From an uncultured Gammaproteobacteria bacterium (GTDB lineage Bacteria; Patescibacteriota; Patescibacteriia; UBA9934), in assembly GCA_964599455.1 (NCBI GenBank), contig CAZREA010000001.1, positions 269,183 through 333,182 of the forward strand: a DNA stretch of 64,000 nt. Reading direction: 5' to 3'. A program made the translations under genes and the position numbers. Position 1 is the stretch's first letter, and the number at the start of each line of letters is the position of its first letter. Positions 785 through 49,306 of this stretch are shown here, in pieces. A model generated the notes under the pieces. That model saw nothing but the letters and a program-made list of their open reading frames with translations. It ran no database searches and was not told the DNA's origin.

Positions 785-1191
785 CATAGAGCATCTTGCG
801 AGGATGGATAAAAGAAATAGTGAAACCACTTTTTTGGATTACTCATCACATTCGCCGAGGAGTCAACCTGTCCTTGTTGCATTTTTCCATTCTCCGCCGC
901 TTCTCCATCCTCAACAACGTAAACCGTTTCACCTGGGCGAGCAAGGTTCAACTTGAGGCGGCTGTTTTCTTCGACATACGTTTCCGTCGCTAACTGATCA
1001 ATCAATTCAACCGACTGTAAACGCTTGCCCTCAAGCGCTGCATTTTCTTTTTGCAATCGCGTAAGTTCAGCAGCAATATCCATATTGCGCACATATTCCC
1101 GACCAAATGACACCGTCACAAAAAGCACACCACCGACAACGGCGATGGTAATCCAGGTGATAAGAGAAAAATTAAACTGTGGTCGATCCAT
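784..1191 (-). CDS. Septum formation initiator family protein (FtsB/DivIC-like)
   Basis: 135 aa with an N-terminal TM helix (ITWITIAVVGGVLFV), a coiled coil (AELTRLQKENAALEGKRL) and EENSRLKLNLARPGETVYVV, which resembles the FtsB C-terminal motif. It lies immediately upstream of murE. Confidence 0.55.
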   Translation of the reverse strand: MDRPQFNFSLITWITIAVVGGVLFVTVSFGREYVRNMDIAAELTRLQKENAALEGKRLQSVELIDQLATETYVEENSRLKLNLARPGETVYVVEDGEAAENGKMQQGQVDSSANVMSNPKKWFHYFFYPSSQDAL

Positions 1192-2497
1192 AGCCCAATT
1201 GTGCCAAAGATTTTCTTACCTGCGCCCGATCATCCCAAGGAATGGTTTTGCCATCAGCAACCGCCATCACTGGCTCAGAACCTTTGCCCGTAACAAGCAC
1301 CACATCACCAGGACGAGCAAGTGACAAGGCATACGCAATTGCCTGTGCACGATCTTCAATCAAAAAAAGATCGAGATTATCACACTTCCCTTCTTTGCGT
1401 GCGCCGTCAGCAACCGCATCGATAATACTGCGTGGATCTTCGTCATATGAATCTTCATTGGTGACAATAACCACATCTTCATGTCGTGCAGCAACTTGTC
1501 CAATAAGTGGTCGACGAGCCTTGTCACGCCCACCACCAGCAGAACCATGAATACCAATGATGTGATTCGGTTTTAGAGCCTCACTCGCCGCAAATAATGC
1601 CCGCAAGGCATAGGGTTCATAGGCATAGTCCACAATCACCGTAAACGGCTGTCCTGCGTCAATCCGCTCAAATCGTCCGGCTACTGCCTGCAGACGCTCT
1701 GCAGCCTTCATGACCTCGGCAAGATCAAAACCCAAACTTGCTACCGTTGCTACTGCTGCCAACGCATTATACCGCTGAAATGCTGCCAACAAGGGCCAAT
1801 AGGCCATCTCGTCATTCACATAGACGGTCGCGCCTTGTTTATCGACCGTTTCTTCATGCGCAAAAAAGATTGGCTTGCGATACACACTCCAGCCAAAAGT
1901 CATGTGCCTGTCAGCAGGAAACTGCGAGTAATAGGGCGAATGTTCATCATCAACATTGATCACTGATACTTTATCAATCCGTTTGCCGTTGAATATTTTG
2001 TGCGAACGTTTGGTGAGATGAGTAAATAAAAGACCCTTCGCTTGCTTATAAGCCTCGAAACTTCCATGTGATTCGATATGTTCAGGTGTGAGATTGGTAA
2101 AAACCGCGACGTCGTAGTTGATACCCACATGACGATATTGCGCGAGTCCTTGTGACGAGGTTTCGACAATTGCATAGGTACAGCCCGCATCAACCATGTC
2201 GCGCAGCATTTTCTGTAGCACGAATCGACCCGGCATGGTCATCTTCATCTTGTTTTCAATCTCTTTACCGGCGATGTTAAATCCCGCGGTCGACGTATAG
2301 CCTACCGTTTCACCAAGGGACGTGAGGAGTTGTGCAATAAAATTTACGGTTGACGACTTCCCATTCGTACCCGTCACGCCAATCACGATCATCTTCTGCG
2401 ACGGCGAACCATAAAGAACCTCAGCAAGTCGCGCGAGGAGAAAGTGATACGCCAACAGCAATGGCGGTGGGACGAGCTTTTTCAGCATCGACGCCAT
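1172..2497 (-). CDS. murE: Mur ligase, MurE-like (UDP-MurNAc-L-Ala-D-Glu : diamino acid ligase), short N-terminus
   Basis: VIGVTGTNGKSST P-loop. GRFVLQKMLRDMVDAGCTYAIVETSSQGLAQYRHVGINYDVAVFTNLTPEHIESHGSFEAYKQAKGLLF aligns to the E. coli MurE core as I recall it. The C-terminal VIVTNEDSYDEDP aligns to the MurE VVVTDDNPRTEEP region, so the DNPR specificity motif is replaced. TAA stop. Confidence 0.75.
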   Translation of the reverse strand: MASMLKKLVPPPLLLAYHFLLARLAEVLYGSPSQKMIVIGVTGTNGKSSTVNFIAQLLTSLGETVGYTSTAGFNIAGKEIENKMKMTMPGRFVLQKMLRDMVDAGCTYAIVETSSQGLAQYRHVGINYDVAVFTNLTPEHIESHGSFEAYKQAKGLLFTHLTKRSHKIFNGKRIDKVSVINVDDEHSPYYSQFPADRHMTFGWSVYRKPIFFAHEETVDKQGATVYVNDEMAYWPLLAAFQRYNALAAVATVASLGFDLAEVMKAAERLQAVAGRFERIDAGQPFTVIVDYAYEPYALRALFAASEALKPNHIIGIHGSAGGGRDKARRPLIGQVAARHEDVVIVTNEDSYDEDPRSIIDAVADGARKEGKCDNLDLFLIEDRAQAIAYALSLARPGDVVLVTGKGSEPVMAVADGKTIPWDDRAQVRKSLAQLGYGSTTV

Positions 2498-2499
2498 AC

Positions 2500-3960
2500 T
2501 TACAGATTGCGAACTTCTTCACGGAACTGTTCCCCACGATCAAATTCATTTTTAAACATGTTAAAGCTGGCTGCACCTGGCGACAACAAAACAATATCAC
2601 CCCCTTCGGCAATCTTGCGCGCCTTTTGCACCGCTTCTTTCATGGAGTTTGCATCGTACAGCTGAACTTTTCCTATTAATTGCTTTTGCAAGATATCAGA
2701 TGCAGTTCCCGGAAAAAGAATGACGGCCTTGCAGAAATTTACAACCGCCTCCGCCAAAGTTTCGTAAGGCAAATTCTTATCTTGCCCGCCAGCAATCAGG
2801 ATAAGACGTTGTTTATCACCAAATCGTTTAAGAGCGGCAACAACGGCCTCAGGAGCAGTGGCGGCTGTATCATTAATGTATGCGATTTCATCAACCTCGC
2901 GGACAAGCTCCTGTCGATCAGGTACACCCTTAAAGTTTCGCAACACGGTTGCAATTTGCTCAGGTGCAACACCACGAAGCATTGCCGCACAGGCCGCTGA
3001 CAAAATATTTTCCAAATTATGATCACCCTGCAACGCCACATCTTTTAACGGCAAGATGCTCGTCTCTTTTCCTTCTCTTCTAAAGAGAATGACGCCATCT
3101 TTTACAAAACAGCCATCGCTACCGTCATCCGTTCGCGAGAACCAGAAGAGTTTTCCTTTCACACGTGGCGCCATCGAACGAACGAGATCGTGATCTTTAT
3201 TGAGCAAAGTGAATTGATCGGGATTTTGATAAGCAAAAATAATCTCTTTGGATTTGACGTACTCTTCAAACGAATTGTAGCGATTAAGGTGATCGGGATA
3301 GACATTCGTGAGCACTGCAATGTCTGGACCTTTTTTGAGATCGGTAAGGGCACCGGGAAGACTTTCAAGTAACCATGATGAAAGTTCAAGCACGATGGGT
3401 GTAGCGGCGTTGTTTTCCAGAAGTTCATCGAGAAACTCAAGTGGGGACACACGAATATTACCAGCAGTGATCGCTTTCGGATCGAGCGCTTTCAACATTT
3501 CTCCGAGCAAGAGCGTCGTAGTAGTCTTCCCCTTTGTTCCGGTGACCGCAATAATAGGATGATGGAAATAGCGGAAAAAGAGACTCACATCGGATTCGAT
3601 GCTAACTCCATTCTTTTTGGCGAGTTGAATATATTCAGATTCACTCGGCACACCCGGATTCTGCACCACACAATTCACACCTTCAAAATCCTCTTTACGA
3701 TGCTGACCAAGCACAAAGAGCGGTTGATAAATCGTTCGATCAGGATACATATCGTGATACTTGTGATACCACTCCATCACCAAATCGACCGATTCCTGAA
3801 GCTCTTGAGCGTCCTTGAGGTCGGTAATAACCGTTTGCGCACCGTGACGCATGAGCCATTTAGCAGTACCGAGTCCGCTTCCCTGTTTATAACGGCCAAG
3901 ACCCATAACCGTAACCACCGCATCGCGGAAATGTTCTATACGATCAAGCTGCATATGCAC
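2500..3960 (-). CDS. murD: UDP-N-acetylmuramoylalanine--D-glutamate ligase
   Basis: 486 aa with an N-terminal Rossmann GLGRYKQGSGLG motif, IIAVTGTKGKTTTTLLLGEML P-loop and Mur-ligase C-terminal domain. Directly upstream of murE. Confidence 0.85.
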   Translation of the reverse strand: MHMQLDRIEHFRDAVVTVMGLGRYKQGSGLGTAKWLMRHGAQTVITDLKDAQELQESVDLVMEWYHKYHDMYPDRTIYQPLFVLGQHRKEDFEGVNCVVQNPGVPSESEYIQLAKKNGVSIESDVSLFFRYFHHPIIAVTGTKGKTTTTLLLGEMLKALDPKAITAGNIRVSPLEFLDELLENNAATPIVLELSSWLLESLPGALTDLKKGPDIAVLTNVYPDHLNRYNSFEEYVKSKEIIFAYQNPDQFTLLNKDHDLVRSMAPRVKGKLFWFSRTDDGSDGCFVKDGVILFRREGKETSILPLKDVALQGDHNLENILSAACAAMLRGVAPEQIATVLRNFKGVPDRQELVREVDEIAYINDTAATAPEAVVAALKRFGDKQRLILIAGGQDKNLPYETLAEAVVNFCKAVILFPGTASDILQKQLIGKVQLYDANSMKEAVQKARKIAEGGDIVLLSPGAASFNMFKNEFDRGEQFREEVRNL

Positions 3961-6564
3961 TTATGATAGCAAGGAGCGTTCGGGAAGGCGATGTGGTGCG
4001 AGGATAAATCGGCGTGCCAGTTCCAAACCGACCATTTTTAACACACTCAATAGGCCAACAACCATAATCCACGACCAGGTTGGCCAAACAAAACCAAAGA
4101 AACTCGCAACCGCAGGCCAAACCAGCAAACCAACCAACAATACGCCGCTCATCATGACAAACATCCATAATTCTTTGTTATAGGGTTGAGACATCTGTCC
4201 CAATCCCTGATCAAGACGTCGAAAAACAAAAATGAGCAACAGAGCATCAAGACCGATAGCAAAAAAGAGTATAGTCTGCATCATAGACAGAGGGAGTTGT
4301 CGCAGGGACAATGCGTACATGAGCGATAGCATTATCCCAGAAACAAAGATGCAAGCAATAATCGTAAAACGACGTAAAGATGGTTGTAAAATATGTTCAT
4401 GAGAAGAACGCGGCAACGAACGAGCAGTATTTTCCGTCACCCGTTCAAAAGCAAATCCAAGCGCCGGAAGTCCATCGCACACCACATTGAGCCATAAAAT
4501 TTGCAGGGCTGTAAGCGGCAACGGCAATCCCGTTAATAATGCGCCCGTGATAAGGAGAATTTCACTCAAACTAAAGGTTAATAAATACGCCGTCATGTTA
4601 CGGATATTGCTAAAAAGCAAACGCCCTTCACCAACGGCATCTACCAATGTTTGCAGCCGATTATCAAGAAGCACGATATCGGCCGTTTCTTTGGCAACAT
4701 CAGTCGCGCTACCCAAACTCACCCCAATATCAGCACGCTTCAGTGCTGGCGCATCATTCACTCCATCACCCGTCATGGCCACCACTTCTCCTGCCTGCTG
4801 CAATAATTGCACAATACGCATTTTATCTTCGGGATTGATGCGGGCAATAATATTGGCATACCGCAAGGCCTGTGTGAGTTCTCGATCAGCCATGTTGCGG
4901 ATCATTTCTCCGGTCAAGGCCGTACCGCTTTCAGAAAAACCTAAATCTTTAGCAATGCGCCAGGCAGTATCAGGATGATCACCAGTCAGCATCATGAAGC
5001 GAATTCCCAATGCACGAACGTTGGCAATCATCTCCTTGGCATCAACACGCAAGGGATCGATAAAACCCAAAAAACCAATAAAAGAAAAATCATGCAATGC
5101 ATCTTCGGATACTTCTCCATCTTTCGCAATCAACAACAAAACACGAAATCCTTTGGCGGTAAGATCTTTATGGCGATCATGTAATTCTTGCAATCGTGCA
5201 TCAGAAACATCGAGCGCAGGAAAAAGTATCTCCGGTGCCCCCATGAGCACCGTCTCCTTTTTCTGTGCACGCCCAAGAATCACGCCAGAATATTTTTTAT
5301 GACTATCAAACGCTATTTCTCGAAAAACTTCTCCTTCAACAAATCCTGCATGCAGCGCAACATATTGTGCAATCGCCTGCTCGGTTAATGACGATGCAAA
5401 CTGTGCATGCGTAGCTGCACCGCGCGACAAGGCATGTAAATACGTGAGCGACCGTGTTGATTGAGCAGTATCAAGCATCTGAAGCGTCATGTTGCCAGTA
5501 GTGAGTGTGCCCGTTTTATCGATACACATAATCGTCACCGAACCCAGTGTTTCCGCTGAAAGCAGACGACGAACAAGCGCTTGTTTTCCCAACATGCGAC
5601 GCATGCCTACTGCGAGCGTCATGGTAAAACCGATCAACAGGCCTTCGGGCACCGCCGCAACGGCAAGCGCGATACTCGTACTTAACATTTGCGAAGGATG
5701 AATCTCTTTCAGTACACCAAAAAGAAAAATAATGGCCGCAATCGCCAACGCAATAAGCGTGATTTGTCGTGAAAGGTGATGAAGATCTTTCGTGAGCGGT
5801 GTCGCCTGTTCACTAGCAGTTGCCGTCAACACGGCAAGTGATCCGAAAACGGTTTTTATTCCCGTAGCTACGACAATCGCCTCAGCCTTACCTCGTGCAA
5901 CGGTGGTGCCAGCAAAAATCATATTTTTGTGCTCTGCGTAGGCGGCAGAGGCGGCAACAGGTTCAATGCTTTTTTCCACTTCCGCACTCTCACCCGTCAA
6001 CGCCGCTTCATAGGTTGCAAAACTATGCACCGACAGCAATCGGGCATCAGCCGGAATCTTTGCACCTGCCGATAATAAAATAATGTCACCAGGAACGATG
6101 TCCGCCGCCTCAATCGACCGCACCTCTCCATCACGACGAACCAACGCCTTTTCTGAAATTAAATGTTGCAACGCAAACAGCGCTCGATCAGCACGATATT
6201 CCTGAAAAAATCCCAGGCCTGCATTAAGAAGCACAATGCACCCCGTTGCTATCGCATCCCACCATTCATGCAACAATAACGAGATGATAACCGCGATAGC
6301 GAGCAAGAGCGTAAACGGACTTTGTAATTGATGCCAAAAGATTTTCACCACCGAGGTCGGTCGAGAAATTTTCAAAATATTCCTCCCCGATGTCCGCAAT
6401 CGATTTACTGCTTCTTGATCAGAAAGCCCCAACACTGCGCCCTGTTGCAATCGAATAACATCAGCACTCTCGAGCACATGCCACGCATGACGTTCCTCCA
6501 TATAGGCAAAGTATAGCAAGGAAGCGCGTTGACAAAAACCGTTCTCAAGACTATAAACTTTCAT
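3961..6564 (-). CDS. P-type cation-transporting ATPase (P2-type, Ca2+/Mg2+-ATPase-like)
   Basis: 867 aa with TGES, CIDKTGTLT (phosphorylation site), PEGL and MTGDGVNDAPALKRADIGVSLG motifs, and about 10 TM helices. Confidence 0.85.
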   Translation of the reverse strand: MKVYSLENGFCQRASLLYFAYMEERHAWHVLESADVIRLQQGAVLGLSDQEAVNRLRTSGRNILKISRPTSVVKIFWHQLQSPFTLLLAIAVIISLLLHEWWDAIATGCIVLLNAGLGFFQEYRADRALFALQHLISEKALVRRDGEVRSIEAADIVPGDIILLSAGAKIPADARLLSVHSFATYEAALTGESAEVEKSIEPVAASAAYAEHKNMIFAGTTVARGKAEAIVVATGIKTVFGSLAVLTATASEQATPLTKDLHHLSRQITLIALAIAAIIFLFGVLKEIHPSQMLSTSIALAVAAVPEGLLIGFTMTLAVGMRRMLGKQALVRRLLSAETLGSVTIMCIDKTGTLTTGNMTLQMLDTAQSTRSLTYLHALSRGAATHAQFASSLTEQAIAQYVALHAGFVEGEVFREIAFDSHKKYSGVILGRAQKKETVLMGAPEILFPALDVSDARLQELHDRHKDLTAKGFRVLLLIAKDGEVSEDALHDFSFIGFLGFIDPLRVDAKEMIANVRALGIRFMMLTGDHPDTAWRIAKDLGFSESGTALTGEMIRNMADRELTQALRYANIIARINPEDKMRIVQLLQQAGEVVAMTGDGVNDAPALKRADIGVSLGSATDVAKETADIVLLDNRLQTLVDAVGEGRLLFSNIRNMTAYLLTFSLSEILLITGALLTGLPLPLTALQILWLNVVCDGLPALGFAFERVTENTARSLPRSSHEHILQPSLRRFTIIACIFVSGIMLSLMYALSLRQLPLSMMQTILFFAIGLDALLLIFVFRRLDQGLGQMSQPYNKELWMFVMMSGVLLVGLLVWPAVASFFGFVWPTWSWIMVVGLLSVLKMVGLELARRFILAPHRLPERSLLS

Positions 6565-6679
6565 TGATTACGCTTCTCTTTCTTTTATTGATCGGATGAT
6601 AAAGAAAGGCAGAGGAGGGCAATTGCGATAGTCGCATTGACTTTTATTCTCAACAACAACTGATAAGGAGTAACGAGTC

Positions 6680-7537
6680 ATGAGGTTCTTTATTCTGTTT
6701 TTTGTGAGCGTGGCCTTTGCCGCCACCGGCACGACGATGTCGACCTGTAACAACGGGTCCAAGCCCATCACCGAAGAGGCCGAGGAGAAACCCTGTTATC
6801 AAGACGACGATGGTGATGGCTTTGGTGGCGAGGAGTACACGGTTCGCCCGTGCAGCACCATGACCGAGTCCGAGGCTATCGTCAGCAACAATGACGACTG
6901 TGATGACGCGGATCCGAACGTCAATCCCGACGCTGACGAGTATTGCGACAGTATCGACAACGACTGTGATGACGAGGTGGATGAAGACAGTGCCAAAGAC
7001 GCCGATACCTGGATGCCAGACCTGGACGGCGACGGCTACGGCATCTACGAGGACTACGTGGTCACCTGCTATCGCCCGGCGGAAATGGCCAATCGAGGCG
7101 GCGACTGCGATGACACCGATCCCGAGGTCAACCCCGGGGAAAAGGAGCAGTGCGACGCGAGCAGCATCGACGACGACTGCGATGGTGCTGTGGACGAAGA
7201 ACAGGACGCCGATGAGGATGGCGCCAACGCCTGCGATGACTGCGACGACGACAACGATGATGCCTATCCAGACGCCGAAGAGGTGCCATCGGACATCAAC
7301 GATGTCGACGAGAACTGCGACGGCGTGGTCACCTGCTATCGCGACAACGACGGTGACGGCTACGGCACCGACGAAATTGTCGACGGTGACGGCTACTGCG
7401 ACACCTGGGACAATGAAGCCATCGAAAAGCAGACTGGGGATTGCGACGACTCACACGTCAACGTAAACCCCGGCGCCGAGGAGCTATGCAACGGCATCGA
7501 CGACAACTGCAATGACTACATCGACGAGCTCTGCTGA
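6680..7537 (+). CDS. Secreted, highly acidic Cys/Asp-rich repeat protein (putative metal-binding MopE-like DxDGDGYG / CDDxDPxVNPGAxExC repeats)
   Basis: Signal peptide MRFFILFFVSVAFAATG with AAGGAG RBS 8 nt upstream. Three repeats of [D-x-D-G-D-G-(Y/F)-G ... C-D-D-x-D-P-x-V-N-P-G-x-x-E-x-C-x-x-x-D-x-D-C-D...]. Locally GC-rich, driven by GAC/GGC codons. Confidence 0.6.
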   Translation: MRFFILFFVSVAFAATGTTMSTCNNGSKPITEEAEEKPCYQDDDGDGFGGEEYTVRPCSTMTESEAIVSNNDDCDDADPNVNPDADEYCDSIDNDCDDEVDEDSAKDADTWMPDLDGDGYGIYEDYVVTCYRPAEMANRGGDCDDTDPEVNPGEKEQCDASSIDDDCDGAVDEEQDADEDGANACDDCDDDNDDAYPDAEEVPSDINDVDENCDGVVTCYRDNDGDGYGTDEIVDGDGYCDTWDNEAIEKQTGDCDDSHVNVNPGAEELCNGIDDNCNDYIDELC

Positions 7538-8042
7538 TCTTTACTTTTTTTCCCATTCATCTAGGCTATCTCTGAGAGATTTTCATGACAGAAGTTCCTG
7601 ATGGCCACGGGAATAGACGTCGGGTCGAGATGTTGCCGCAACAACATCTCGGAAAAACCAGTGAAAAATCTCTCGGAGGTTAAGCCCTTATCCTTTTGTA
7701 AACCTATCGCCAACGTAAAGATTACCAGCGTACGATGACGGCTGATAGGAATGCTCGGGGAAAGGCAAGCTGCAAGGATCCAGCGGTTGGAGGTCCCGAA
7801 ATGGGACAGAGAACACGCGACAACGGTGCGTGACCCAACCAAGATTCGCCCGATGAAAGTTCGGGGAGGCGGCATCTTGAGGATGTCGTCAGGGGAATGA
7901 TGAAAGAAACTGCAGTGCGGATGCAGAACCAAAAGTCGTTCCCTCGCGTTTACGCGTTACGTGAACTCGCTCTCCCAAGGAGCGGGTTTCTTTATTGGCC
8001 GAGGTTGCAGAAGAAAACAGTTTTTGTTATCCTATCGACCGC

Positions 8043-8117
8043 GCGCTGGTAGCTCAGTGGTAGAGCAAAGGCCTTTTAAGCCTGTGGTCGTGGGTTCGAT
8101 CCCCACTCGGCGCACCA
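8043..8117 (+). tRNA. tRNA-Lys (anticodon UUU)
   Basis: Cloverleaf read by hand. Acceptor GCGCTGG / TCGGCGC (GU wobbles), D-arm GCTC-AGTGGTA-GAGC, anticodon stem-loop AAGGC-CTTTTAA-GCCTG (UUU at positions 34-36), T-arm GTGGG-TTCGATC-CCCAC, encoded CCA end. Confidence 0.85.
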
Positions 8118-8187
8118 AGAATATCTCTGGGAAAACCCCAGGGATTTTCTTTATTTCCCCATTTTTTTGTGAGAAAATAATCATCAT

Positions 8188-8841
8188 ATGAAAACCGTTG
8201 TTATTACCGGAGCAAGTCGCGGGATTGGCAAAGCGTTAGCCGAGAAATTTCTTGCCCAAGGTGACTTCGTGATCGGTACATCTCGCACCGGAACGTCGAG
8301 CAGTGAAGATGCCAATTTTCTGATGTTGCCTCTTGAGCTGAGGGACGCAAAGAGTATCGACCAATGCATCAATACTCTGATCGCTCTTAACAAGCCAATT
8401 GATATTCTTATCAACAATGCATGGACTTGGCATGAACAAGATAATGAAGCGACCATTGCTATCCCTGTATTGCGAGAGACGCTTGAAACCAATGTTTTTG
8501 GCGTGATTGCTTTAAGCGAACAAATCTCCGCTCTGATGAAGGACGGGTCCCAAATCATCAACATCAGCTCTCGCCGAGGATCGTGCGAACAAACAACAGA
8601 TACCCTCTATCCCTGCTACAGCATCGCCAAAGCCGCACTCAATATGTACACCAAAAAATTAGCCATGCGATTAAAAGAAAAAGTAACGGTGTCATGTGTG
8701 CATCCGGGATCGGTTCAAACCGACATGAATCCCGACGGAGAAATATCTGCAAAAGAATCAGCAAATGATATCTATCAACTCATCATGAACAACAAAGAAA
8801 CCGGGCAGTTTTGGTATAAGGGAGAAAAATTTCCTTGGTAG
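8188..8841 (+). CDS. Short-chain dehydrogenase/reductase (SDR) family oxidoreductase
   Basis: MKTVVITGASRGIGKALAEKF (TGxxxGIG) and YSIAKAAL (YxxxK catalytic motif). Confidence 0.85.
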   Translation: MKTVVITGASRGIGKALAEKFLAQGDFVIGTSRTGTSSSEDANFLMLPLELRDAKSIDQCINTLIALNKPIDILINNAWTWHEQDNEATIAIPVLRETLETNVFGVIALSEQISALMKDGSQIINISSRRGSCEQTTDTLYPCYSIAKAALNMYTKKLAMRLKEKVTVSCVHPGSVQTDMNPDGEISAKESANDIYQLIMNNKETGQFWYKGEKFPW

Positions 8842-8850
8842 ACTTAAAAA

Positions 8851-9333
8851 TCATCCAAAATCTTGACGAAAACAGTAAAAAGCCAAGGTCACTACATCGT
8901 GTTTTAAACCTATCGGCCAGATACCTATACGATCAAAAATTCCAGTAGAAAAATGTTTGTGATTACGAGTCAAAAGAAAAAGATTTTTTCCGTATCTTTT
9001 AAGCTGTGCAGCGATACAGCAGTCAGCTAATTCTGGTTCTGGCAATTTTCTAGCAGTATAAAAATGAGCGATATCTATAGCATCTTGAAATAATTTCTTC
9101 TCTCCGGCGATTGGTAAACATGTACATCCAAGAATAGCAAGATAATCAAGAATTCTCTTCTTATATTCTTCTTGATAAGCAGTTCTTAAAAATTCAAATT
9201 CAATAAAAGGATTATAGTGGAGCGAACAAGAAGAATCATCAAGAAATTGGAAAAGTTCTTTAAAGGGTTCAGGCGTCTGAAATGATTCGATAAGAACATT
9301 CGTGTCAAGAAGAACCGCTTTATGCTTCAACAA
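8851..9333 (-). CDS. PIN-domain ribonuclease (VapC-like toxin)
   Basis: ...KHKAVLLDTNVLIESF... classic PIN N-terminal motif. The longest ORF (to 9450) overlaps the upstream small gene by 130 nt. In-frame TTG TTG codons at 9333/9330 would give MLKHKAVLLDTNVLI and a ~14-nt overlap with the antitoxin stop. Start is uncertain (9333, 9369, 9393 or 9450). Confidence 0.6.
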   Translation of the reverse strand: MLKHKAVLLDTNVLIESFQTPEPFKELFQFLDDSSCSLHYNPFIEFEFLRTAYQEEYKKRILDYLAILGCTCLPIAGEKKLFQDAIDIAHFYTARKLPEPELADCCIAAQLKRYGKNLFLLTRNHKHFSTGIFDRIGIWPIGLKHDVVTLAFYCFRQDFG

Positions 9334-9490
9334 ATTCTTCAGTGTATTTTCCTGAGCGATATTGAGCATAAACCTCTCGACGAATTTTCTCATTTTCTTT
9401 GTAGAGCCGTTGCAAATCTTTTGCAACGACAAAATACTGATCCCAATCAATGGTTTTTTTCTCGACAGCTTTTTGAGAAAAAGTATTCAT
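9320..9490 (-). CDS. Small protein upstream of the PIN gene, candidate antitoxin (VapB-like)
   Basis: MNTFSQKAVEKKTIDWDQYFVVAKDLQRLYKENEKIRREVYAQYRSGKYTEEFVEA (~56 aa, start uncertain; longest ORF to 9523). It overlaps the PIN gene, which is typical type II TA architecture. Confidence 0.35.
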   Translation of the reverse strand: MNTFSQKAVEKKTIDWDQYFVVAKDLQRLYKENEKIRREVYAQYRSGKYTEEFVEA

Positions 9491-9562
9491 ATACCTAATC
9501 ATAACACAAAAAAAATTAAACACATCAAAAAGAAAAAGCCCCCGATGCGGACGGAACCGCTA

Positions 9563-9630
9563 TAAAACAACAAACCCCGCGTCGGAAACGACGAGCACTC
9601 CCGAGTTGGGGCTTGTCGTTTGATGCGGGG
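9563..9630 (-). terminator. Rho-independent terminator (nested GC hairpin plus U-run on the minus strand) downstream of gene 9660..10445
   Basis: ccccgcgtcggaaacgacgagc...gcttgtcgtttgatgcgggg inverted repeat, followed on the minus strand by TTTGTTGTTTTAT. Confidence 0.5.
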
Positions 9631-9659
9631 CTGAGAGATAGAAATTGCTCGTTGTCGAC

Positions 9660-10445
9660 CTACAGCTTCAGCAGCTCGCGCGCCTCCATGTGCGTGAACT
9701 GACGGCCGACGATACGGCGAGTGTAAGCGCCCTCTATGATCGAGACGACGAGGAAAATCCCGCCGTCCGAGGTGACGATGATTCGACGCACGTAAGTGGT
9801 GAGATTGATGAACGGATGCGCCGAGAAAACCTCGTCAAGGGTGAGCTCCACACGGTCAAGTGACGTATTGAACTCGATCCCGTCGGGGATGCCGAGGAGC
9901 TGAATGAGACGCTCGTCGGTGCAGTTACGGAAAAACTGCTCGTGGTTACTGTAGAAGAACTCGTCGTCGGGATTGATGGCCCGGCAATGAGCGAGTACGC
10001 CCCGATATCCCTCCGGTCCGGTAATCGGGAGCATGACGATGTCGTCGTCGCCCAGGGCGGCCTCGGCCTCCTTCTTGGTCAAGAAAATGCGGATCACCCG
10101 CCCGGTGCCGCGGGTCTGCACCCACTCTTCAGTGGACAGGATGACCCAGCGTGGAGCATCGTCGTCCTTGCCGGCATCGTCCCAGACGACGAGGACCTCA
10201 CGGCCATCGTCGTCTTCGTTGATTGCCAGGAAGAAGTAGACCGAACCCTCGTGGTCCTCCGCGTGAAGGACATTGCCCGTGGGGACGTTGTGAAACAGCT
10301 CGTTGTGACCGATAACGACGATCGTCAGCTTATCGTCGTCAGGGACTCGCGTTTCCCCTTCGCCGATCAGCTCGATCGCTTCGTAGAAGTCCTTGGAACC
10401 TTCCGGGAACACAAGCTCACCGTTACGAATGCGCAGCAGAGACAT
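9660..10445 (-). CDS. Hypothetical protein (GC-rich, acidic)
   Basis: Probable start MSLLRIRNGELVF at 10445, preceded by GGAGG. The longer ORF to 10547 is less likely. No motif recognised. About 60% GC versus the flanks. Confidence 0.5.
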   Translation of the reverse strand: MSLLRIRNGELVFPEGSKDFYEAIELIGEGETRVPDDDKLTIVVIGHNELFHNVPTGNVLHAEDHEGSVYFFLAINEDDDGREVLVVWDDAGKDDDAPRWVILSTEEWVQTRGTGRVIRIFLTKKEAEAALGDDDIVMLPITGPEGYRGVLAHCRAINPDDEFFYSNHEQFFRNCTDERLIQLLGIPDGIEFNTSLDRVELTLDEVFSAHPFINLTTYVRRIIVTSDGGIFLVVSIIEGAYTRRIVGRQFTHMEARELLKL

Positions 10446-10609
10446 GGGCACCTCCAAAGGTTTCGACACACCAGCGACAGCTGCTGTGGCCCTTAAGATT
10501 CTCGATTTCTTCAAGAACCCTGAGCGCGAAACGGCATACGTTACCAAGAAATGCTATTCTTGTCTACCTTTTACAAAAGATGAAATTTGATATAAAAGAG
10601 TAGAGAGGC

Positions 10610-11140
10610 ATGCAGCTGCATAGCGTAGCGCAATTACCTCGCATATCAGGAGTAACCGTGTCACGTGTATCTCTTCTCGTCCTTCTTACTGGATGCTTCA
10701 CCCTTCCCAAACCACAGGCGGTAGTGCTCGTCGAAACCACACCGCAATGGCCAACGGCGACGATCTTCCTCGAGATCGACGGACAGATGAGGAAGTGGGA
10801 AGGCGAGGATCTGACCTACGACGACCTGATGAGTCTCGACGACAACACCGTCGACACCGGTTCCTCGGTTATCACCGAGGCCGACCTGGCCATGGTCACC
10901 GCGTATGGCAACGACAAGGGCCACTACGGATGGGCGGAGCTCGCCTATTCGAATTGGACTGCGGAAGGTGGCGTGGTGAACCTCTGGGTCGACTATGCCG
11001 ATAGGGAGGGTAAACCCGACCCCACCAACCGGACCCGGGTCGCGTACCTCTACTGGGACGCGGAGGTGGAGTCGTGCTACAGCTTCCACGGGGCAAAAAA
11101 CCACGTGGTCATCTGCGGTGCTGATGAGGTCGCGGAGTAG
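10610..11140 (+). CDS. Putative lipoprotein (GC-rich), divergent from 9660..10445
   Basis: N-terminus VSLLVLLTGC gives an L-L-T-G-C lipobox after a hydrophobic stretch. No other motif recognised. Confidence 0.45.
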   Translation: MQLHSVAQLPRISGVTVSRVSLLVLLTGCFTLPKPQAVVLVETTPQWPTATIFLEIDGQMRKWEGEDLTYDDLMSLDDNTVDTGSSVITEADLAMVTAYGNDKGHYGWAELAYSNWTAEGGVVNLWVDYADREGKPDPTNRTRVAYLYWDAEVESCYSFHGAKNHVVICGADEVAE

Positions 11141-11264
11141 CCAGATCGTCTTCGAAGCCGGTCGTGTTGTCCGATGACACGACTGGCTTTTTGAAAACTT
11201 CTACATTCTCATCAAGCGCGACCGGTTCTTCGCAAAAAAGTATGCACGTGTTACCCTTTGTTTT

Positions 11265-12428
11265 ATGCAACGCTTTGAAACTCTCGTTATTGGCTTGGGT
11301 GCAATGGGAAGTGCGGCAGTCTATCAACTCGCAAAACGCGGCGCACATGTACTTGGCATTGATCAATACGCTCCTCCGCATACAATCGGTTCAACGCATG
11401 GGGAAACGCGTATTACGCGCCAAGCGATTGCCGAAGGTAAAGAATATGTTCCGCTTGTCCTCCGGGCAAATGCAATCTGGCGAGAGACCGAACAGCAAAC
11501 CGGCGCATCTCTTTTTGTTGCCAATGGGGGATGAATTGTAGGCGATGCTCACGTCACAAAAGGCAGTCACCAAACATACAATTTTCTTCTTGAAACTATC
11601 AACGCTGCAAAACACTACGCCATTCCTCATGAGATTCTTGATGCCCCTGCTTTGCAACAGCGCTTCCCGCAATTTCATTTTCATGGAAACGAAACAGGGT
11701 ACTATGAGAAGGGCGCTGGTTTTCTTCGTCCAGAACAATGTATCGAAACTCAACTTGCACTCGCAAAACACCATGGCGCTGAAATACATGTCAATGAAAA
11801 AATGATCTCCTATGCGTCGTCCGATAAAGGTATTATCGTTAAAACCAATAAAGATGAATATATAGCGCAAAAGATTATTCTCACTCTTGGTCCATGGATT
11901 CGGGAATCATTACCCGAGCTTGCACACTATTTTTCCGTTTATCGCCAGGTACTGTATTGGTTTAAAGTACATGACCGTCACGAACACTATTCACCTGATC
12001 GTTTCCCTATTTTTATTTTTGATTTCGGGCATGAAGCAGAATTTTACGGATTTCCGATTGTCGATACAGAAACGGGCGGATTGAAAATTGCCAAAGAAGA
12101 ATATCTTATCGATACTTCCCCCGAACAAGTCGATCGAAAAGTGTCGGCAGAAGAAATCGATCGCATGTTTATGCAGGCAAAGGAATATCTTCCCAATCTC
12201 AAAAACGAATGCATAAAAGCAATTTCGTGTCTCTACACCGTGACGCCCGATACAAAATTCGTCATTGATACCCATCCGCAAGACAAACGCATAATTATCG
12301 CCTCACCCTGTTCGGGGCACGGTTTTAAACATTCAGCTGCAATCGGTGAAGTACTTGCAGAATTAGCGACTACAGAAAAAAGTTCTCTCGATATTTCTTC
12401 ATTCTCTCTGCAAAGATTTACCAAGTAA
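11265..12428 (+). pseudogene. Monomeric sarcosine oxidase / N-methyl-L-tryptophan oxidase (SolA/MSOX) family FAD oxidoreductase interrupted by one in-frame TGA (11532-11534)
   Basis: N-terminal part [68 protein letters not shown] aligns to my recollection of SolA (IIGSGSVGAAAGYY...[32 protein letters not shown]). Both ORF pieces (11265..11534 and 11652..12428) are in the same frame (coordinate mod 3 = 0). The stretch between them translates cleanly (IVGDAHVTKGSHQTYNFLLETINAAKHY...). The C-terminal part carries the GHGFKHSAAIGE motif (SolA GHGFKFASVLGE). Confidence 0.55.
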
Positions 12429-12459
12429 GCATGAAAGTAATGGCAATAAAAAGAACGGG

Positions 12460-13017
12460 CTAGACTTGCTGTACAGAGTTACTTTTTTTCAATCGTTCCA
12501 TAAACGTCACATCTTTTTCATCAGCCGACGTATAGACACCTGTTTTGCTATCCAAATATCCCCACCCATTATGTAACACCGCGGGACCACAAGTCATACG
12601 AGTAACTGTGCCCGGCTGCACATTGATGACTCGATGAAACATATCGCGCGTAATGGTATTTACATCCCCCGCCCCAAACACCAGAACTTCATGGCAAACA
12701 TCACCATCATCACCAATCCAATACCGTTCTTCGGTATACCCACCGGAAAGAATCTCAGATGAAAAATCCCAAGGATGATTATGCGGCTCACCGCGATCAT
12801 CATCTTCATGCCACCAATTGATTTTAATGGTGCGCACGACAGCGTTGCGCTCAAGGACCAGCTGCGTTTTAAACGTATGCTCATTTGCGGTAGGAATGTA
12901 TTCAGGAGAAAGATTGGGATGTTGAATATGGTATATATCGATTGTCTCGCGAATCAGATGATCACACACGTTACACATTTCATAAATACTTTCTTGCGAG
13001 CAATACTTACAAAGCAT
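12460..13017 (-). CDS. Cupin-fold protein, thiol dioxygenase-like (PCO/ADO/CDO family), with an N-terminal C4 zinc-ribbon-like motif
   Basis: EPHNHPWDFSSEILSGGYTEERYWI matches the HxHP...(S/K)xL.G pattern of cysteamine/cysteine dioxygenases. N-terminal CKYC...CNVC. Confidence 0.4.
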   Translation of the reverse strand: MLCKYCSQESIYEMCNVCDHLIRETIDIYHIQHPNLSPEYIPTANEHTFKTQLVLERNAVVRTIKINWWHEDDDRGEPHNHPWDFSSEILSGGYTEERYWIGDDGDVCHEVLVFGAGDVNTITRDMFHRVINVQPGTVTRMTCGPAVLHNGWGYLDSKTGVYTSADEKDVTFMERLKKSNSVQQV

Positions 13018-13129
13018 AGAGATATTGTTATAAATACACAGAGTAGTATAGCCGATGAAAGGTATTCATCAAGAGGAAAGAAACAGGCAGCCCCGCAACC
13101 ACTCAAGGCGCGGGGCTTCGATGACGTGT

Positions 13130-13828
13130 TCACGTTGACAAGGCGATCCGTTCGGCGATCGTTTGAGCTTGGGCCAGACCCGCCAGCAAGGCGAACTGCT
13201 GGTCGGCGCGGTCGATGTTGTGACCGCTCATGTGTGCGCTGCCATCGATATGAAGAAATTGCCCGCAATAGAGAGCAGTGGCATTCCCAGGAATGGTGAG
13301 CGAGAGCCTGCCGTCCGTGGTCGCCTCGCTTTGGAAGGGATACTTCAGCCTACCATCGCCACGGACTCGATCCATGGTCTGTTTCATCATCAAGGCGATC
13401 GCGCCATGATCCTCTGCGGTGAACCGCTTCACGAGGCCGACCATACGACCCGACAGGGTTACCCCCACGTCATATCCGCTGTTGCCGCCCTGCGCCAGAA
13501 GACCCGTGAACGCCACGAGTGGCGCGTCCTCTTCGCTCCACTCCTCAAGCATCAGCGCAAGGCGAAGAACATCCAATGACCGGCTCGTCGCACTCGCAGA
13601 CTTTGCAGCAAAGGTGGCGGTGAAGACCAGTACTCCTTCGCGTGCTTCTTGACGCAAAACACCACGAAAGCCCCAGCGCCGAGGCCCTACGAAAAACGGC
13701 TCTTCTCCTTGGCGCAGATGGCGAACGATGGGAGCCTCTGCGGTGACACGCTTCACCAAACCCTCGAACGTCTTGGGAATCTCGGTCGCGATTCCCTCCT
13801 CCGTCGGAATCAATCGATATCGTTGCAT
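13130..13828 (-). CDS. Hypothetical protein (GC-rich)
   Basis: 232-aa ORF with protein-like composition. The antisense ORFs look spurious. No motif recognised. Confidence 0.45.
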   Translation of the reverse strand: MQRYRLIPTEEGIATEIPKTFEGLVKRVTAEAPIVRHLRQGEEPFFVGPRRWGFRGVLRQEAREGVLVFTATFAAKSASATSRSLDVLRLALMLEEWSEEDAPLVAFTGLLAQGGNSGYDVGVTLSGRMVGLVKRFTAEDHGAIALMMKQTMDRVRGDGRLKYPFQSEATTDGRLSLTIPGNATALYCGQFLHIDGSAHMSGHNIDRADQQFALLAGLAQAQTIAERIALST

Positions 13829-13901
13829 GAATGGCTATCCTCCGCCAAAAAGACTAGCCAAACAGCGTCAAAACAACAAGCCCCATTAGTCGCGGCAAGA
13901 T

Positions 13902-15707
13902 CTATCTTTTTAACACCTTTAAATAGGCATCTCCAGGAATATCAACATTCCCCACACCTAAAGACATCATCTTTTTCTTTCCTTTCTTTTGTTTTTGTAA
14001 TAATTTTAATTTTCGCGTGGCATCTCCACCATACAATCCCGCCGTCACATCTTTGCGCAACGCCGAAATTCGCTCACCGGCAACAACCTTGCCACCGACC
14101 GAGGCTTGCAACTTGATCACAAATTGGGTGCGAGGAATAGTCTCTTGCAAAATTTTCAAGATGCGACGACCGACACGCTCAGACTCATCGCGATACACCA
14201 AAGAGGAAAACGCATCCACCGGCGCGTCGGCAACCATAATATCCAGACGCACAATATCAGCTTGTCGATAGGCAAAGATTTCGTAACTCAATGACGCATA
14301 CCCTGCAGTTGCACTTTTGAGCTTATCATTAAAATCAACAATGATGGCAGATAATGGCAACTCATAATGCAACATGGCACGACCTTCAGAAAGATATTCG
14401 GTTGTTAAATACGTTCCATGTCGCTCCTGACACAATTGCATAACGTTCCCGATATAGTCCGACGGTGTGACAATCGCCACTTTTGCCCACGGCTCTTCGA
14501 TATGTTCGATGTGTGCGGGATCGGGCAAATCAAGCGCACCTTTCACCACATGATATACAGATTCTCCATTACGAAAGACACGATAAGCCACCGATGGCAA
14601 TGTCACGACCAAATCGATAGTATATTCACGTGAAAGACGCTCCTTCAAAATCTCTAAATGGAGCATGCCCAAAAATCCGCAACGAAAACCATATCCCAAT
14701 GCAGGCGAATGTTCGGGCTCGAATACCAATGCGGCATCGTTGAGCTTTAATCGATCCATGGCATCGCGCAGCGCACTGTATTCATCACCTTGTGCAGGAA
14801 AAACACCGGCGAAAACCATTGGTTTGACTTCACGATATCCTGAGAGGGGTTGGGCATACCCGACTCCTACATTCGTCGTCATCGTATCACCAACACGACA
14901 AGCACGGATATCTTTCAATCCGGTCACAATATAGCCGATTTGTCCGGTCTCTAATTCTTGAAGCGGAGAAAGCTTTGGCTTGAGTGCGCCAATTTCTAAA
15001 ATTTCGCCTTCACCGTTGGTTGCTAACATGTGCAACTTATCGTGTTTGCGGAATGCGCCATCAATCACGCGCACATAGGCAATAACACCTTTGTAGTCAT
15101 CGTATGCGGAATCAAAAATAAGTGCTCGCGGCGCTGATGCTACTTCACCTTTTGGTGATGAGATGCGTTCAACAACCGCATCAAGCAGTGCCGGCACTCC
15201 TTCACCCGTCTTTCCCGATACAGCAAAAATTTCTTCTGGTTTGCATCCGAGTAATTTTACTAATTCAGCAGTACGTCGCGGAATATCCGCAGCCGGAAGA
15301 TCAATTTTATTAAGGACCGGAATGATTTCCAAATTTTCTTCCATCGCTAAAAATAAGTTCGCGACAGTCTGTGCCTGAATACCTTGTGTTGCATCAACCA
15401 ATAGCACAGCTCCGTCAACCGCAGCCAGCGACCGCGACACTTCGTAAGTAAAATCGATGTGGCCAGGAGTATCGATGAGATTGAGCGTATATTCGACGTC
15501 ATCTTTTTTCCAATTCATGCGTGCAGGAGCAAGCTTGATAGTAATACCGCGCTCACGTTCAAGATCCATGGAGTCGAGCAGTTGATCTTTCATGTTGCGA
15601 CGCTCAACGGTACCCGTAATCTCAAGCAAACGATCGGACAAGGTAGACTTACCGTGATCAATATGCGCGATAATGCAGAAGTTACGAATGCGATCCTGAG
15701 GAACCAT
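13902..15707 (-). CDS. lepA: Elongation factor 4 (translational GTPase LepA)
   Basis: NFCIIAHIDHGKSTLSDRLL G1 motif, DTPGHIDF, NKIDL, and the LepA-specific C-terminal domain. 601 aa. Confidence 0.9.
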   Translation of the reverse strand: MVPQDRIRNFCIIAHIDHGKSTLSDRLLEITGTVERRNMKDQLLDSMDLERERGITIKLAPARMNWKKDDVEYTLNLIDTPGHIDFTYEVSRSLAAVDGAVLLVDATQGIQAQTVANLFLAMEENLEIIPVLNKIDLPAADIPRRTAELVKLLGCKPEEIFAVSGKTGEGVPALLDAVVERISSPKGEVASAPRALIFDSAYDDYKGVIAYVRVIDGAFRKHDKLHMLATNGEGEILEIGALKPKLSPLQELETGQIGYIVTGLKDIRACRVGDTMTTNVGVGYAQPLSGYREVKPMVFAGVFPAQGDEYSALRDAMDRLKLNDAALVFEPEHSPALGYGFRCGFLGMLHLEILKERLSREYTIDLVVTLPSVAYRVFRNGESVYHVVKGALDLPDPAHIEHIEEPWAKVAIVTPSDYIGNVMQLCQERHGTYLTTEYLSEGRAMLHYELPLSAIIVDFNDKLKSATAGYASLSYEIFAYRQADIVRLDIMVADAPVDAFSSLVYRDESERVGRRILKILQETIPRTQFVIKLQASVGGKVVAGERISALRKDVTAGLYGGDATRKLKLLQKQKKGKKKMMSLGVGNVDIPGDAYLKVLKR

Positions 15708-15796
15708 AGAATGCAGGTAGTGTAGCGGATATTGTCCATTTTCCGCAACTAAAAAGACGAGGCCAAGAGACCTCGTCTTTTTTTCTTTCTTTACTT

Positions 15797-18160: not shown

Positions 18161-18301
18161 GGTTCTTTTACTCTCCGACAAGAGAAATCCGTTTCTCAGT
18201 TGCATAATGAAATAAAGAAAAGTTAAGTCTTTGCAAAAGAGTATAGAACACTTTTTCTCTTCTTTATACAAAAAGCATGAAAAGCTGTGGAAAGAAAATA
18301 T

Positions 18302-22430: not shown

Positions 22431-22467
22431 GCCCGCTGGCACTTGTCGGCGGGCCTCTGTCTTTGTA
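22431..22467 (+). terminator. Rho-independent terminator (repeat copy 1)
   Basis: gcccgctggcacttgtcggcgggc perfect hairpin followed by ctctgtctttgt. Confidence 0.6.
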
Positions 22468-22574
22468 ATAAATCAATGTGTACTCTATCCTTACACTTTT
22501 TTACTCCTTTTTCAGCGTCTTTTTCTCTTTACCTTTAGTGTACTCATCGGCACAGCGGACAACTTCTCCTCCGC

Positions 22575-23042
22575 ATGTCACCAAAGTTTCTCATGAAAAT
22601 CCGTATCGCGGTCATCGCCTTCATCGGCGTCAATGGACATCTGCATAAATCCGTTCACACTCAGTACGTGATTGCCAAAACCAAAGAGCATCACTGGTGT
22701 CTTCCCGAAGCAGATCTCCTTGAAAAAGAAAGATTCGACGATGCAGCAGCGCGCATCCTGCTCGATGAAACGCAAACATGGCTGCCAAACTACAAGTTCG
22801 ACTACTTCGCTCATGAAGTGGAACCAGATGGCATCATCACAATCTTCATGACTACAGTCGGATGGGACTCAGCCCTTCCTCCATCACCGAGAAAGGAGTG
22901 GCCAGCCTTTATTCGCGAGGTCCACGATATTCATAGACAGAGAGGAGACATAGGTCTCGTCAATAAAGGTCTTGTCCACGTAGAGAAGTACCGCGACGCC
23001 GTGATACAAGCCTATCTGAAGTACTTCGTAAAAACTAAGTGA
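22575..23042 (+). CDS. Nudix-fold paralog (degenerate)
   Basis: ...HHWCLPEADLLEKERFDDAAARILLDETQTWL... parallels the Nudix-box region of the upstream paralog (GTWCPPSLL...). Confidence 0.4.
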   Translation: MSPKFLMKIRIAVIAFIGVNGHLHKSVHTQYVIAKTKEHHWCLPEADLLEKERFDDAAARILLDETQTWLPNYKFDYFAHEVEPDGIITIFMTTVGWDSALPPSPRKEWPAFIREVHDIHRQRGDIGLVNKGLVHVEKYRDAVIQAYLKYFVKTK

Positions 23043-23059
23043 CACGTGTCACCCTCATA

Positions 23060-23095
23060 GCCCGCTGGCACTTGTCGGCGGGCTTCATCTTTTCC
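23060..23095 (+). terminator. Rho-independent terminator (repeat copy 2, identical hairpin)
   Basis: gcccgctggcacttgtcggcgggc followed by ttcatcttttcc. Confidence 0.6.
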
Positions 23096-23175
23096 TGGAA
23101 GAATAAAAGTGAAATAAAATATTACATTTTAAAAAGCTTTTTCCACATCATTTCCCTTTTTCTCTTACTGTATGT

Positions 23176-23655
23176 TTGCGAGACATGAACATCATCTTCC
23201 TCATGCCTCGGGAGTTCACCATGAACGTTCATATCATCGTCATCGCCTTCTTCGCAAAAGAAGAAAAAATGGGTACACAAATAATTACTCGGGAAAGAGT
23301 GATCACAAAAAACGGTGAGGAAAAAGGATTACCCAGAGGAAGCATCCAGAACACCGAAACGCTGGAAGAGGCTGCCTCTCGCATTCTTCACGAGTTGAGT
23401 TGCGTACGAATTCCATCTCCTTGCTTTACGTATGCAGCAAATCACAGAAGTAAGGAGGGCATCGAGATCTACATGGTAACGCACGGTTGGCAGGCATCTG
23501 ACGCCACCGATCTTTCCGCGAACTGCACACTCACCATTCCCGCTCTCGTTCATACAAGCGAGCGAGGGATCGTAGAGCGTACCTTCGAACAACATCACGG
23601 TGACGCCACCACGCTCAATATGATCGCACGTGCCTATCAACGGCATCAGTCATAG
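23176..23655 (+). CDS. Nudix-fold paralog (degenerate)
   Basis: ...GLPRGSIQNTETLEEAASRILHELSCV... Alternative start MNVHIIVIAFF at 23221. Confidence 0.4.
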   Translation: MRDMNIIFLMPREFTMNVHIIVIAFFAKEEKMGTQIITRERVITKNGEEKGLPRGSIQNTETLEEAASRILHELSCVRIPSPCFTYAANHRSKEGIEIYMVTHGWQASDATDLSANCTLTIPALVHTSERGIVERTFEQHHGDATTLNMIARAYQRHQS

Positions 23656-23688
23656 GAGATCAACTTGTTCCGTTAATCATTGCGTGGT

Positions 23689-23724
23689 CCGCCGATACGT
23701 TTGTCGGCGGGCTTATCTTTTTAA
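23689..23724. terminator. Terminator hairpin (diverged copy 3), overlapping the bgl stop codon
   Basis: ccgccgatacgtttgtcggcgg followed by gcttatcttttta. Confidence 0.5.
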
Positions 23725-48652: not shown

Positions 48653-48666
48653 GACTACGACTCGAA

Positions 48667-48712
48667 ACCCGCTATGTCGTTCGCGAACGATATGGCGGGT
48701 TCACTGTCTTAA
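48667..48712 (+). terminator. Rho-independent terminator of paralog A
   Basis: acccgctatgtcgttcgcgaacgatatggcgggt (17-bp stem including GU pairs) followed by tcactgtctt. Confidence 0.55.
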
Positions 48713-49273: not shown

Positions 49274-49306
49274 ACATAGCCACTCCCGGACTTGGGAGTG
49301 GCTCGA

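Follow-up and report, generated by a model that had tools for sequence, protein, structure and literature searches.

Does the 505-nt gap (7538-8042) found between a gene for a MopE-like secreted repeat protein and a tRNA-Lys(UUU) gene in the stretch of DNA analyzed here (64,000 nt, the window hereafter) encode a structured RNA, as a sequence-only reading of the locus had proposed, or does it belong to one of its neighbors? The MopE-like gene (6680..7537, plus strand) bounds the gap on the 5' side. It encodes 285 aa with three PF11617 matches, has a GC content of 0.58 and an atypical codon usage, and is preceded by a Shine-Dalgarno sequence, AAGGAG (6665-6670, plus strand), 9 nt before the ATG. 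The tRNA gene on the 3' side (8043..8117, plus strand) is intact and features an unusual GGC/GCC anticodon stem; the gap abuts it at 8043, so that the placement of the block directly 5' of tRNA-Lys was accurate. The description of the block as GC-rich hardly was: its GC content is 0.506, the mean for the window is 0.475 (sd 0.044), and 16% of windows of the same size are as GC-rich or more so. The plus strand of the region is purine-rich, as that of the upstream gene, and is G-rich rather than C-rich, which would make it unlike a Rho utilisation site. Window positions 3680-8071 and 4117-8071 are matched at 100% identity by two independent Logan assemblies derived from different runs and, as not a single difference was found, an assembly artefact is excluded. 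No mention of the source runs, SRR16481182 and SRR16481183, turned up in the literature searched.

The region had been thought to contain no convincing ORF, and six-frame, Pfam, homolog and codon-usage tests were all empty. The concatenated six-frame translation of 7538-8040 had no match at E<=10 in a set of 5.8 billion proteins, the gene calls of the source genome included. Codon-usage log-odds reveal no coding frame in the region, a weak test since MopE itself scores as atypical, and none of the internal ATGs is accompanied by a properly spaced Shine-Dalgarno sequence, unlike the ATG of MopE. The 123-aa antisense ORF singled out earlier exists (7561..7932, minus strand, TTG start), but is better called spurious than low-complexity: it has no Pfam match, no coding signal, and 0 homologs among 1.84 billion cluster representatives, and was rejected as a real protein. 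The minus strand is pyrimidine-rich, and stop codons are therefore depleted there. An alternative genetic code with UGA as a sense codon was rejected as well, MopE gaining only 9 codons before a TAG is reached.

Folded as one 503-nt RNA, the plus strand of the region reaches -179.5 kcal/mol, vs. -152.5 kcal/mol in dinucleotide shuffles (z = -4.6); the z-score of the minus strand of the whole region is -1.8. The predictions partly confirm the proposal of a structured RNA, and suggest two structured modules and a terminator rather than one ornate fold of ~480 nt. The 5' module (7564..7686, plus strand) is predicted to form a three-way junction, in which an outer helix of 23 bp, 3 of them G.U (7564-7586/7661-7686), encloses hairpin A (7594-7600/7608-7614) and hairpin B, a perfect 10-bp stem with the loop CCGCAA (7626-7635/7642-7651). 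The segment 7560-7690 yields z = -5.4 on the plus and -3.6 on the minus strand, with 0/200 shuffles as good on each strand. Both the long-range helix and the perfect hairpin had been placed by the sequence-only reading 1-3 nt away from where they lie: the arms of the former, 14 nt long and 93% complementary, map at 7570-7583/7665-7678 and are part of the 23 bp formed as RNA, and the latter is the CGAGATGTTG-CCGCAA-CAACATCTCG sequence of hairpin B. The central segment (7690..7838, plus strand) has no significant fold on either strand (z = -0.8 on the plus, -1.1 on the minus), and holds an isolated hairpin, GTCCC-GAAAT-GGGAC, at 7794-7808.

The 3' module (7846..7956, plus strand) is made up of four consecutive hairpins. 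Hairpin 1 spans 7846-7853/7861-7867. Hairpin 2 (7868-7877/7881-7890) and hairpin 3 (7892-7901/7935-7944, with a cap at 7910-7914/7922-7926) are both 10 bp long with 3 G.U pairs each, and hairpin 4 is the shortest, at 7945-7948/7953-7956. The segment 7840-7962 scores z = -3.9 on the plus strand (0/200 shuffles) vs. -1.2 on the minus (24/200), and the minimum free energy structure of the module coincides with the centroid, and accounts for 28% of the ensemble. Of the pairs of the 5' module 11% are G.U, a share that reaches 19% in the 3' module and terminator combined; these G.U pairs explain the asymmetry between strands, and point to an RNA of the plus strand. Two hairpins of the GAAA type had been indicated in the sequence-only reading, and both were found, one being that of the central segment, the other CCCGA-TGAAAGT-TCGGG (7849-7865). 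The label hairpin-dense fits 7564-7686 and 7846-7956, but not the central ~150 nt, which fold as shuffled sequences do.

Folding was also monitored throughout the window in 130-nt windows at 983 positions, both strands being scored (1st percentile z = -4.3, 2nd percentile -3.7). Windows 7541-7670 (plus strand, -4.7) and 7866-7995 (plus strand, -4.0) fall in the tail of the distribution, within the top ~1-2%. About 30 other windows share this tail, many of them terminator-like. Other non-coding gaps of the window likewise fold unusually well, and good folding may be a general property of spacers in the host genome.

An intrinsic terminator, supported by terminator scan, inverted repeats and folding, is located at 7963..7996 on the plus strand. 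Its G+C-rich stem (7963-7989) is 11 bp long, GAACTCGCTCT pairing with GGAGCGGGTTT around the loop CCCAA (-14.9 kcal/mol), and is directly followed by the U tract typical of such elements, TTTCTTTATT (7987-7996), the first three T residues of which still belong to the stem and complete it. An identical 10-mer, TTTCTTTATT, occurs 3' of the tRNA-Lys terminator (8123..8155, plus strand). The element at 7963-7996 is the first simple terminator downstream of the MopE stop codon according to the terminator scan. The T-rich spacer directly after the stop codon (7538..7563, plus strand) has no simple terminator hairpin.

Promoters were searched at two levels of stringency. A strict scan of 7300-8400 gave no site, and missed also the tRNA-Lys promoter, which is evident. 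A relaxed sigma70 scan was calibrated on this promoter and on the corresponding sites of relatives; it measures consensus matches only, the promoters of the host lineage being uncharacterised. By eye, the sites upstream of tRNA-Lys in relatives are comparable, TTCACA-17-TATAAT in L015, TTGCAA-17-TATGGT in L014, and TTGCAA-17-TATATT in L017. The relaxed scan finds 2.8 sites per kb over the window, and only two within 6560-8060. One, TTGCGA-16 nt-TATTCT, lies upstream of MopE (6623..6650, plus strand) and is a consensus match only; the other, TTGCAG-17 nt-TATCCT, lies upstream of tRNA-Lys (8005..8033, plus strand). Within 6660-8000 there is no promoter-like site even under permissive criteria.

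As neither a promoter-like site nor a terminator is found in between, the MopE promoter, the MopE gene, a trailer of ~450 nt and the terminator at 7963-7996 can be viewed as a single unit. We accordingly favor, tentatively and with a probability of about 0.45, a reading in which the region is the lineage-specific, long, partly structured 3' UTR of a MopE-like transcript. Transcription itself, co-transcription with MopE, and a stabilising or small RNA role are all inferred. Transcription would start at the MopE promoter (~6623-6650) and run through the gene; past the stop codon the polymerase would transcribe the 123-nt three-way junction, ~150 nt of unstructured RNA and the four-hairpin module, and the transcript would end at the canonical terminator. 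tRNA-Lys would be a separate unit, served by its own promoter and by its own terminator at 8123-8155. Together with the terminator, the cluster of stable hairpins at the 3' end could protect the end of the mRNA against 3'-to-5' exonucleases, and keep read-through away from the tRNA promoter. In its anatomy the segment 7840-7996, the last ~150 nt, is that of a small RNA derived from a 3' UTR, and it could accumulate in this form.

Small RNAs derived from 3' UTRs are known in enterobacteria, CpxQ, SroC and DapZ being examples. As in these cases, the region follows a protein gene of the same strand, with no promoter-like site or terminator in between as judged by consensus scans, its stable hairpins end in an intrinsic terminator, and its last ~150 nt are sRNA-like. 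It differs in length, ~450 nt being above what is typical, in being known here from sequence alone, and in having no conservation by which a seed or a target could be defined. Two considerations weaken the assignment of the region to a 3' UTR. A 3' UTR of ~450 nt is long for a small, compact genome. Moreover, the 5' module, with CCCTTATCCTTTTGT coming after it, might itself end MopE transcription, and the 3' module would be left without an identified promoter. The structure may also be free of selection, no homologs having been found in which its helices could covary.

A different solution would be that the region belongs to a known RNA class, but in a divergent form that the models miss. RNase P RNA, tmRNA, SRP RNA and 6S RNA were considered along with RNAs of the GOLLD/ROOL/OLE/HEARO type and a group I intron hosted by an undetected tRNA. 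The covariance-model search, suggested in the sequence-only reading as a check, was carried out with the 4227 families of Rfam release 15, at gathering score on the whole window, and on 7450-8200 with the filters relaxed and a limit of E<=10. At gathering score, tRNA-Lys is the only match in the whole window. At E<=10, only chance snoRNA-sized hits fall inside the region, and RNase P, tmRNA, SRP, 6S, GOLLD/ROOL/OLE/HEARO/raiA and group I intron models give none. ARAGORN reports tRNA-Lys only, without tmRNA, and no T-arm motif was found in 7400-8042. The earlier opinion that the region is not RNase P, tmRNA or SRP RNA thus agrees with both Rfam and ARAGORN.

The same reading had perceived a loose string likeness to the P4 region of RNase P RNA. 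Indeed, GAUGAAAGUUCGGGG and GCAGAACC loosely resemble CR-I and CR-V, and the length of the region is in the RNase P range. The resemblance is superficial, GAUGAAAGUUCGGGG being one arm and the loop of a local 5-bp hairpin (7849-7853/7861-7865), and CAGAACC being found only ~60 nt downstream. The two strings do not pair, are ~60 nt rather than ~250-300 nt apart, and enclose no specificity domain. The region is also absent from relatives, which is unexpected for a housekeeping RNA and impossible for an essential one.

Large ornate RNAs of the GOLLD/ROOL type (RF01998 and RF03087) occur near tRNAs, and the region recalls their contexts in being an ORF-free, multi-hairpin block of several hundred nt adjoining a tRNA gene. 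It differs from them in lacking a covariance-model match, homologs and covariation, and in the unstructured state of its central third. Viral and phage sequences did not yield it either: viral contigs were scanned three times for exact patterns (two motifs of the region, one tRNA anchor) without a match, and blastn of phages and plasmids revealed no similarity.

Group I introns deserve separate mention, because tRNA genes of Patescibacteria carry introns of a few hundred nt that standard annotation can miss (PMC13011429). The region is a structured block of similar size at a tRNA locus in the same phylum, but the tRNA-Lys gene next to it is intact and uninterrupted, and no tRNA exon halves flank the region, in contrast to the introns described there (PMC13011429). 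RF00028 has no match at E<=10 in 7450-8200, a result to be read knowing that each intron model misses some introns, as noted in the study of the custom gpI_bact_tRNA.cm model (PMC13011429). An intron-split tRNA was rejected, the only GTTCRANYC and TAGYNNAG motifs of the plus strand in 7400-8150 being those of tRNA-Lys itself. On the whole, membership of a known class is hardly credible.

The 5' module taken alone could be a piece of mobile or recombination DNA, either a MITE-like inverted repeat or the attC site that follows a gene cassette. It is a near-perfect inverted repeat placed immediately after the stop codon, stable on both strands (z = -5.4 / -3.6), and the GTTAAGC heptamer in its 3' arm (7679) matches the attC R' core GTTRRRY. 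Yet no R'' partner core (RYYYAAC) is found 47-157 nt away on the same strand, and the whole window contains zero R''/R' core pairs of the attC type; an integron attC site was therefore rejected. Neither integrase nor transposase genes were found among the neighbors in 1172-18271, and neither the 64-kb window nor the related loci, 210 kb in all, contain a second copy of the module. We regard an element of this sort as very improbable. Two further DNA elements were discarded. Short matches between the 3' end of MopE and the region might evoke the template repeat of a DGR, but occur at inconsistent offsets (252, 396 and 403 nt), and the scan of the neighbors in 1172-18271 gave no reverse transcriptase. 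Two TTATCC strings might evoke a replication origin, but full DnaA boxes are lacking, as is an AT-rich unwinding element.

The host has few sequenced kin. Clustering of about 15 billion proteins at 90% identity leaves LepA, the ATPase and MopE each as a singleton, and the best matches of the ATPase in 185,579 reference species are 31-35% identical, with no close relative among them. Wherever a homolog of the downstream SDR bears an organism name, the label is Patescibacteria or one of its lineages. In contigs with SDR or MopE homologs, synteny is not conserved, and no similarity to the region was detected.

A metagenome search anchored on the unusual anticodon arm of tRNA-Lys was more rewarding, and yielded 11 contigs. 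The acceptor stem is shared by eight of them, and the whole tRNA is identical in three. Part of the tRNA-Lys/ATPase/murD/murE neighborhood is kept in nine of the 11, which represent seven distinct loci (tblastn; murD 47-67%, murE up to 77% identity). In L018/L021, murE (77%) and murD (66%) diverge from the tRNA, as they do in the window. The tRNA, the ATPase (38-39%), murD (64-67%) and murE follow in order in L022 and L020, the tRNA, further genes and then murD in L019 and L016. Near the tRNA of L017 only the ATPase (38%) was matched. The MopE-like gene is present in none of the 11 contigs, and in none was similarity to the region detected by nhmmer (E<=10), by blastn of the 600 nt upstream of the tRNA, or by covariance models. 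Two single-sequence covariance models, R1 for the 5' module and R2 for the 3' module with the terminator, retrieved only themselves in 273 kb (window and 23 loci). Within these sequences the region thus occurs once, in the 64-kb window, and has no counterpart in the 210 kb of related loci. What the sequence-only reading had itself named as refuting has largely come about, and a conserved structured RNA family finds no support in these data, there being no covariance-model match and no counterpart in the 11 contigs. What stands of the structured RNA proposed is a strand-specific, better-than-chance fold with G.U pairs, a defined ensemble and a terminator, which make a structured transcript plausible; what does not is a single fold of ~480 nt, and the region has neither a model match nor a counterpart elsewhere.

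An independent ncRNA gene restricted to the host lineage is another reading of the region. It could specify either an RNA of ~430 nt (7564-7996) or an sRNA of ~150 nt (7840-7996), acting in trans and driven by an unrecognised promoter. The strand-specific, well-defined fold with a canonical terminator at its end, the 3' module displaying the classic anatomy of an sRNA (several hairpins, then a terminator), and the non-coding character of the region by every test all fit such a gene, and a compact genome is expected to purge useless DNA. Against it stand the lack of promoter-like sites in 6660-8000 and of Rfam matches at E<=10, and the absence of homologs from syntenic relatives, fetched loci, viral contigs, phages and plasmids; the unstructured central 150 nt speak specifically against a single large ornate RNA. 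The existence of this gene seems to us unlikely. Taken more broadly, an undescribed structured RNA, whether a stand-alone species of ~430 nt or a trans-acting sRNA of ~150 nt derived from the 3' UTR, kept out of sight because close relatives are unsequenced, is a fairly unlikely prospect.

The absence of the region from all relatives suggests, by parsimony, that it was gained together with MopE in the host lineage, and the deviant GC content (0.58) and codon usage of MopE are consistent with a joint arrival of gene and trailer. MopE is probably an acquired gene, and the slot that holds the block is variable within a neighborhood conserved in other respects. The acquired DNA next to the gene need not be functional. 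It may be neutral left-over, either intergenic or degraded in the donor, in which the terminator alone has a function, the hairpins being relics or incidental. All relatives that keep the neighborhood lack both the region and MopE, MopE looks foreign, the middle third of the region folds only as well as random sequence does, conservation was detected nowhere among the sequences searched, and the plus strand is purine-rich like that of the upstream gene, all of which would suit neutral DNA. Small genomes, in turn, delete neutral DNA quickly, and two modules with z about -4 to -5.4 and 0/200 shuffles as good, one of them strongly strand-specific and G.U-rich, are unexpected for random or decayed coding sequence. 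Protein remnants are missing too, targeted searches included. MopE-family homologs are longer solely through more ~70-aa repeats, and a decayed extra repeat was looked for by comparing 17 members of the family with the trailer (tblastn); the best score was 20.8 bits, a control last repeat randomised at 30% of positions scoring 90 bits. Decayed versions of a 133-aa ORF found in the slot of L018/L021, or of the ORFs neighboring the tRNA in relatives, were rejected, all scores being below 19 bits in any frame. Neutral left-over DNA is accordingly a fairly unlikely explanation.

The region is therefore at most a candidate for a structured 3' UTR or a 3'UTR-derived sRNA at an orphan locus, and the main value of the analysis is negative, one candidate for a large ornate RNA or a divergent RNase P having been removed. 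If the region is transcribed as proposed, it would provide an example of a 3' UTR that is both long and structured, and that possibly gives rise to an sRNA, in a bacterium of the candidate phyla radiation type. Little non-coding DNA is expected to be tolerated by genomes as small as these, and post-transcriptional regulation in the candidate phyla radiation is, to our knowledge, essentially unexplored.

The comparison also places the block, beside a probably acquired gene, in the variable slot of the tRNA-Lys/ATPase/murD/murE neighborhood. The content of this slot, 5' of the tRNA, changes from one relative to the other. It is empty in L013, where murD (47%) abuts the tRNA; it contains the 133-aa ORF, which resembles a signal-peptide protein, in L018/L021, and small minus-strand ORFs in L015/L016/L019 and in L020/L022.

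The tRNA-Lys/P-type ATPase/murD/murE neighbourhood found at 1172-8117 of the window is common to the Patescibacteria-like contigs L013 and L016-L022, related metagenome contigs which share the unusual anticodon arm of the tRNA-Lys. The orientation of the tRNA-Lys gene within this neighbourhood is not constant: the window, L013 and L018/L021 show a divergent arrangement, and L016, L019, L020 and L022 a co-directional one. The slot adjoining the tRNA hosts different lineage-specific small ORFs. The ATPase is far more diverged than murD in the same set (38-39% vs. 64-67% identity). The MopE-like gene (6680-7537, plus strand) has no ortholog in the syntenic relatives, and was probably acquired horizontally. 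Its GC content is 0.58 (vs. a window mean of 0.475), its codon usage is atypical, and its closest matches, 36-41% identical, reside in Myxococcota, Deltaproteobacteria and Cyanobacteria MAGs.

A 199-aa ORF of low GC content (0.35; 8851-9450, minus strand), located shortly after tRNA-Lys and the SDR gene, shows no more than sub-threshold similarity to PIN/VapC (19 bits; cut-off 23.6), and may belong to a small island adjoining tRNA-Lys. A 258-aa ORF found farther on (11652-12428, plus strand) matches the N-methyl-L-tryptophan oxidase model NF008425 with 281 bits, covering only positions 124-376 of the 377 of the model. The ORF thus appears to lack the N-terminal third, and may represent either a truncated gene or a pseudogene with a frameshift. 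Independent Logan contigs of this organism are interrupted inside the tRNA-Lys gene, L024 and L025 ending, and L001 starting, there (window 8071 and 8089), presumably because the tRNA sequence is common to other members of the community; these breaks illustrate why short-read assemblies frequently lack tRNA-adjacent regions.

Beside the 7538-8042 region, the window contains a second ORF-free gap of about 500 nt (38889-39386), flanked by minus-strand genes (37809-38888 and 39387-41030). This gap folds much more stably than shuffled sequences, the minus strand most strongly (z = -7.5 vs. -5.0), and includes a perfect 11-bp hairpin near 38955-38996 (GGAGGGAAGGCG...CGCCTTCCCTC). Rfam yielded no match in the gap with either the gathering score or E<=10 as the cut-off; the gap may correspond to a further structured leader, trailer or ncRNA. 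Long structured spacers seem to be common in this genome; strongly folding non-coding stretches are also found at 48441-48778, 49206-49400 and 58701-59052, with z down to -9.6 at 49271-49400 (130-nt windows). Related 47-nt palindromic, terminator-like repeats, 83% identical, are located at 48667-48713 and 49306-49352. Three more terminator-like repeats (GCCCGCTGGCACTTGTCGGCGGGC...), spaced by exactly 629 nt, are found at 22431-23722, and appear to be preceded by tandemly duplicated small genes.
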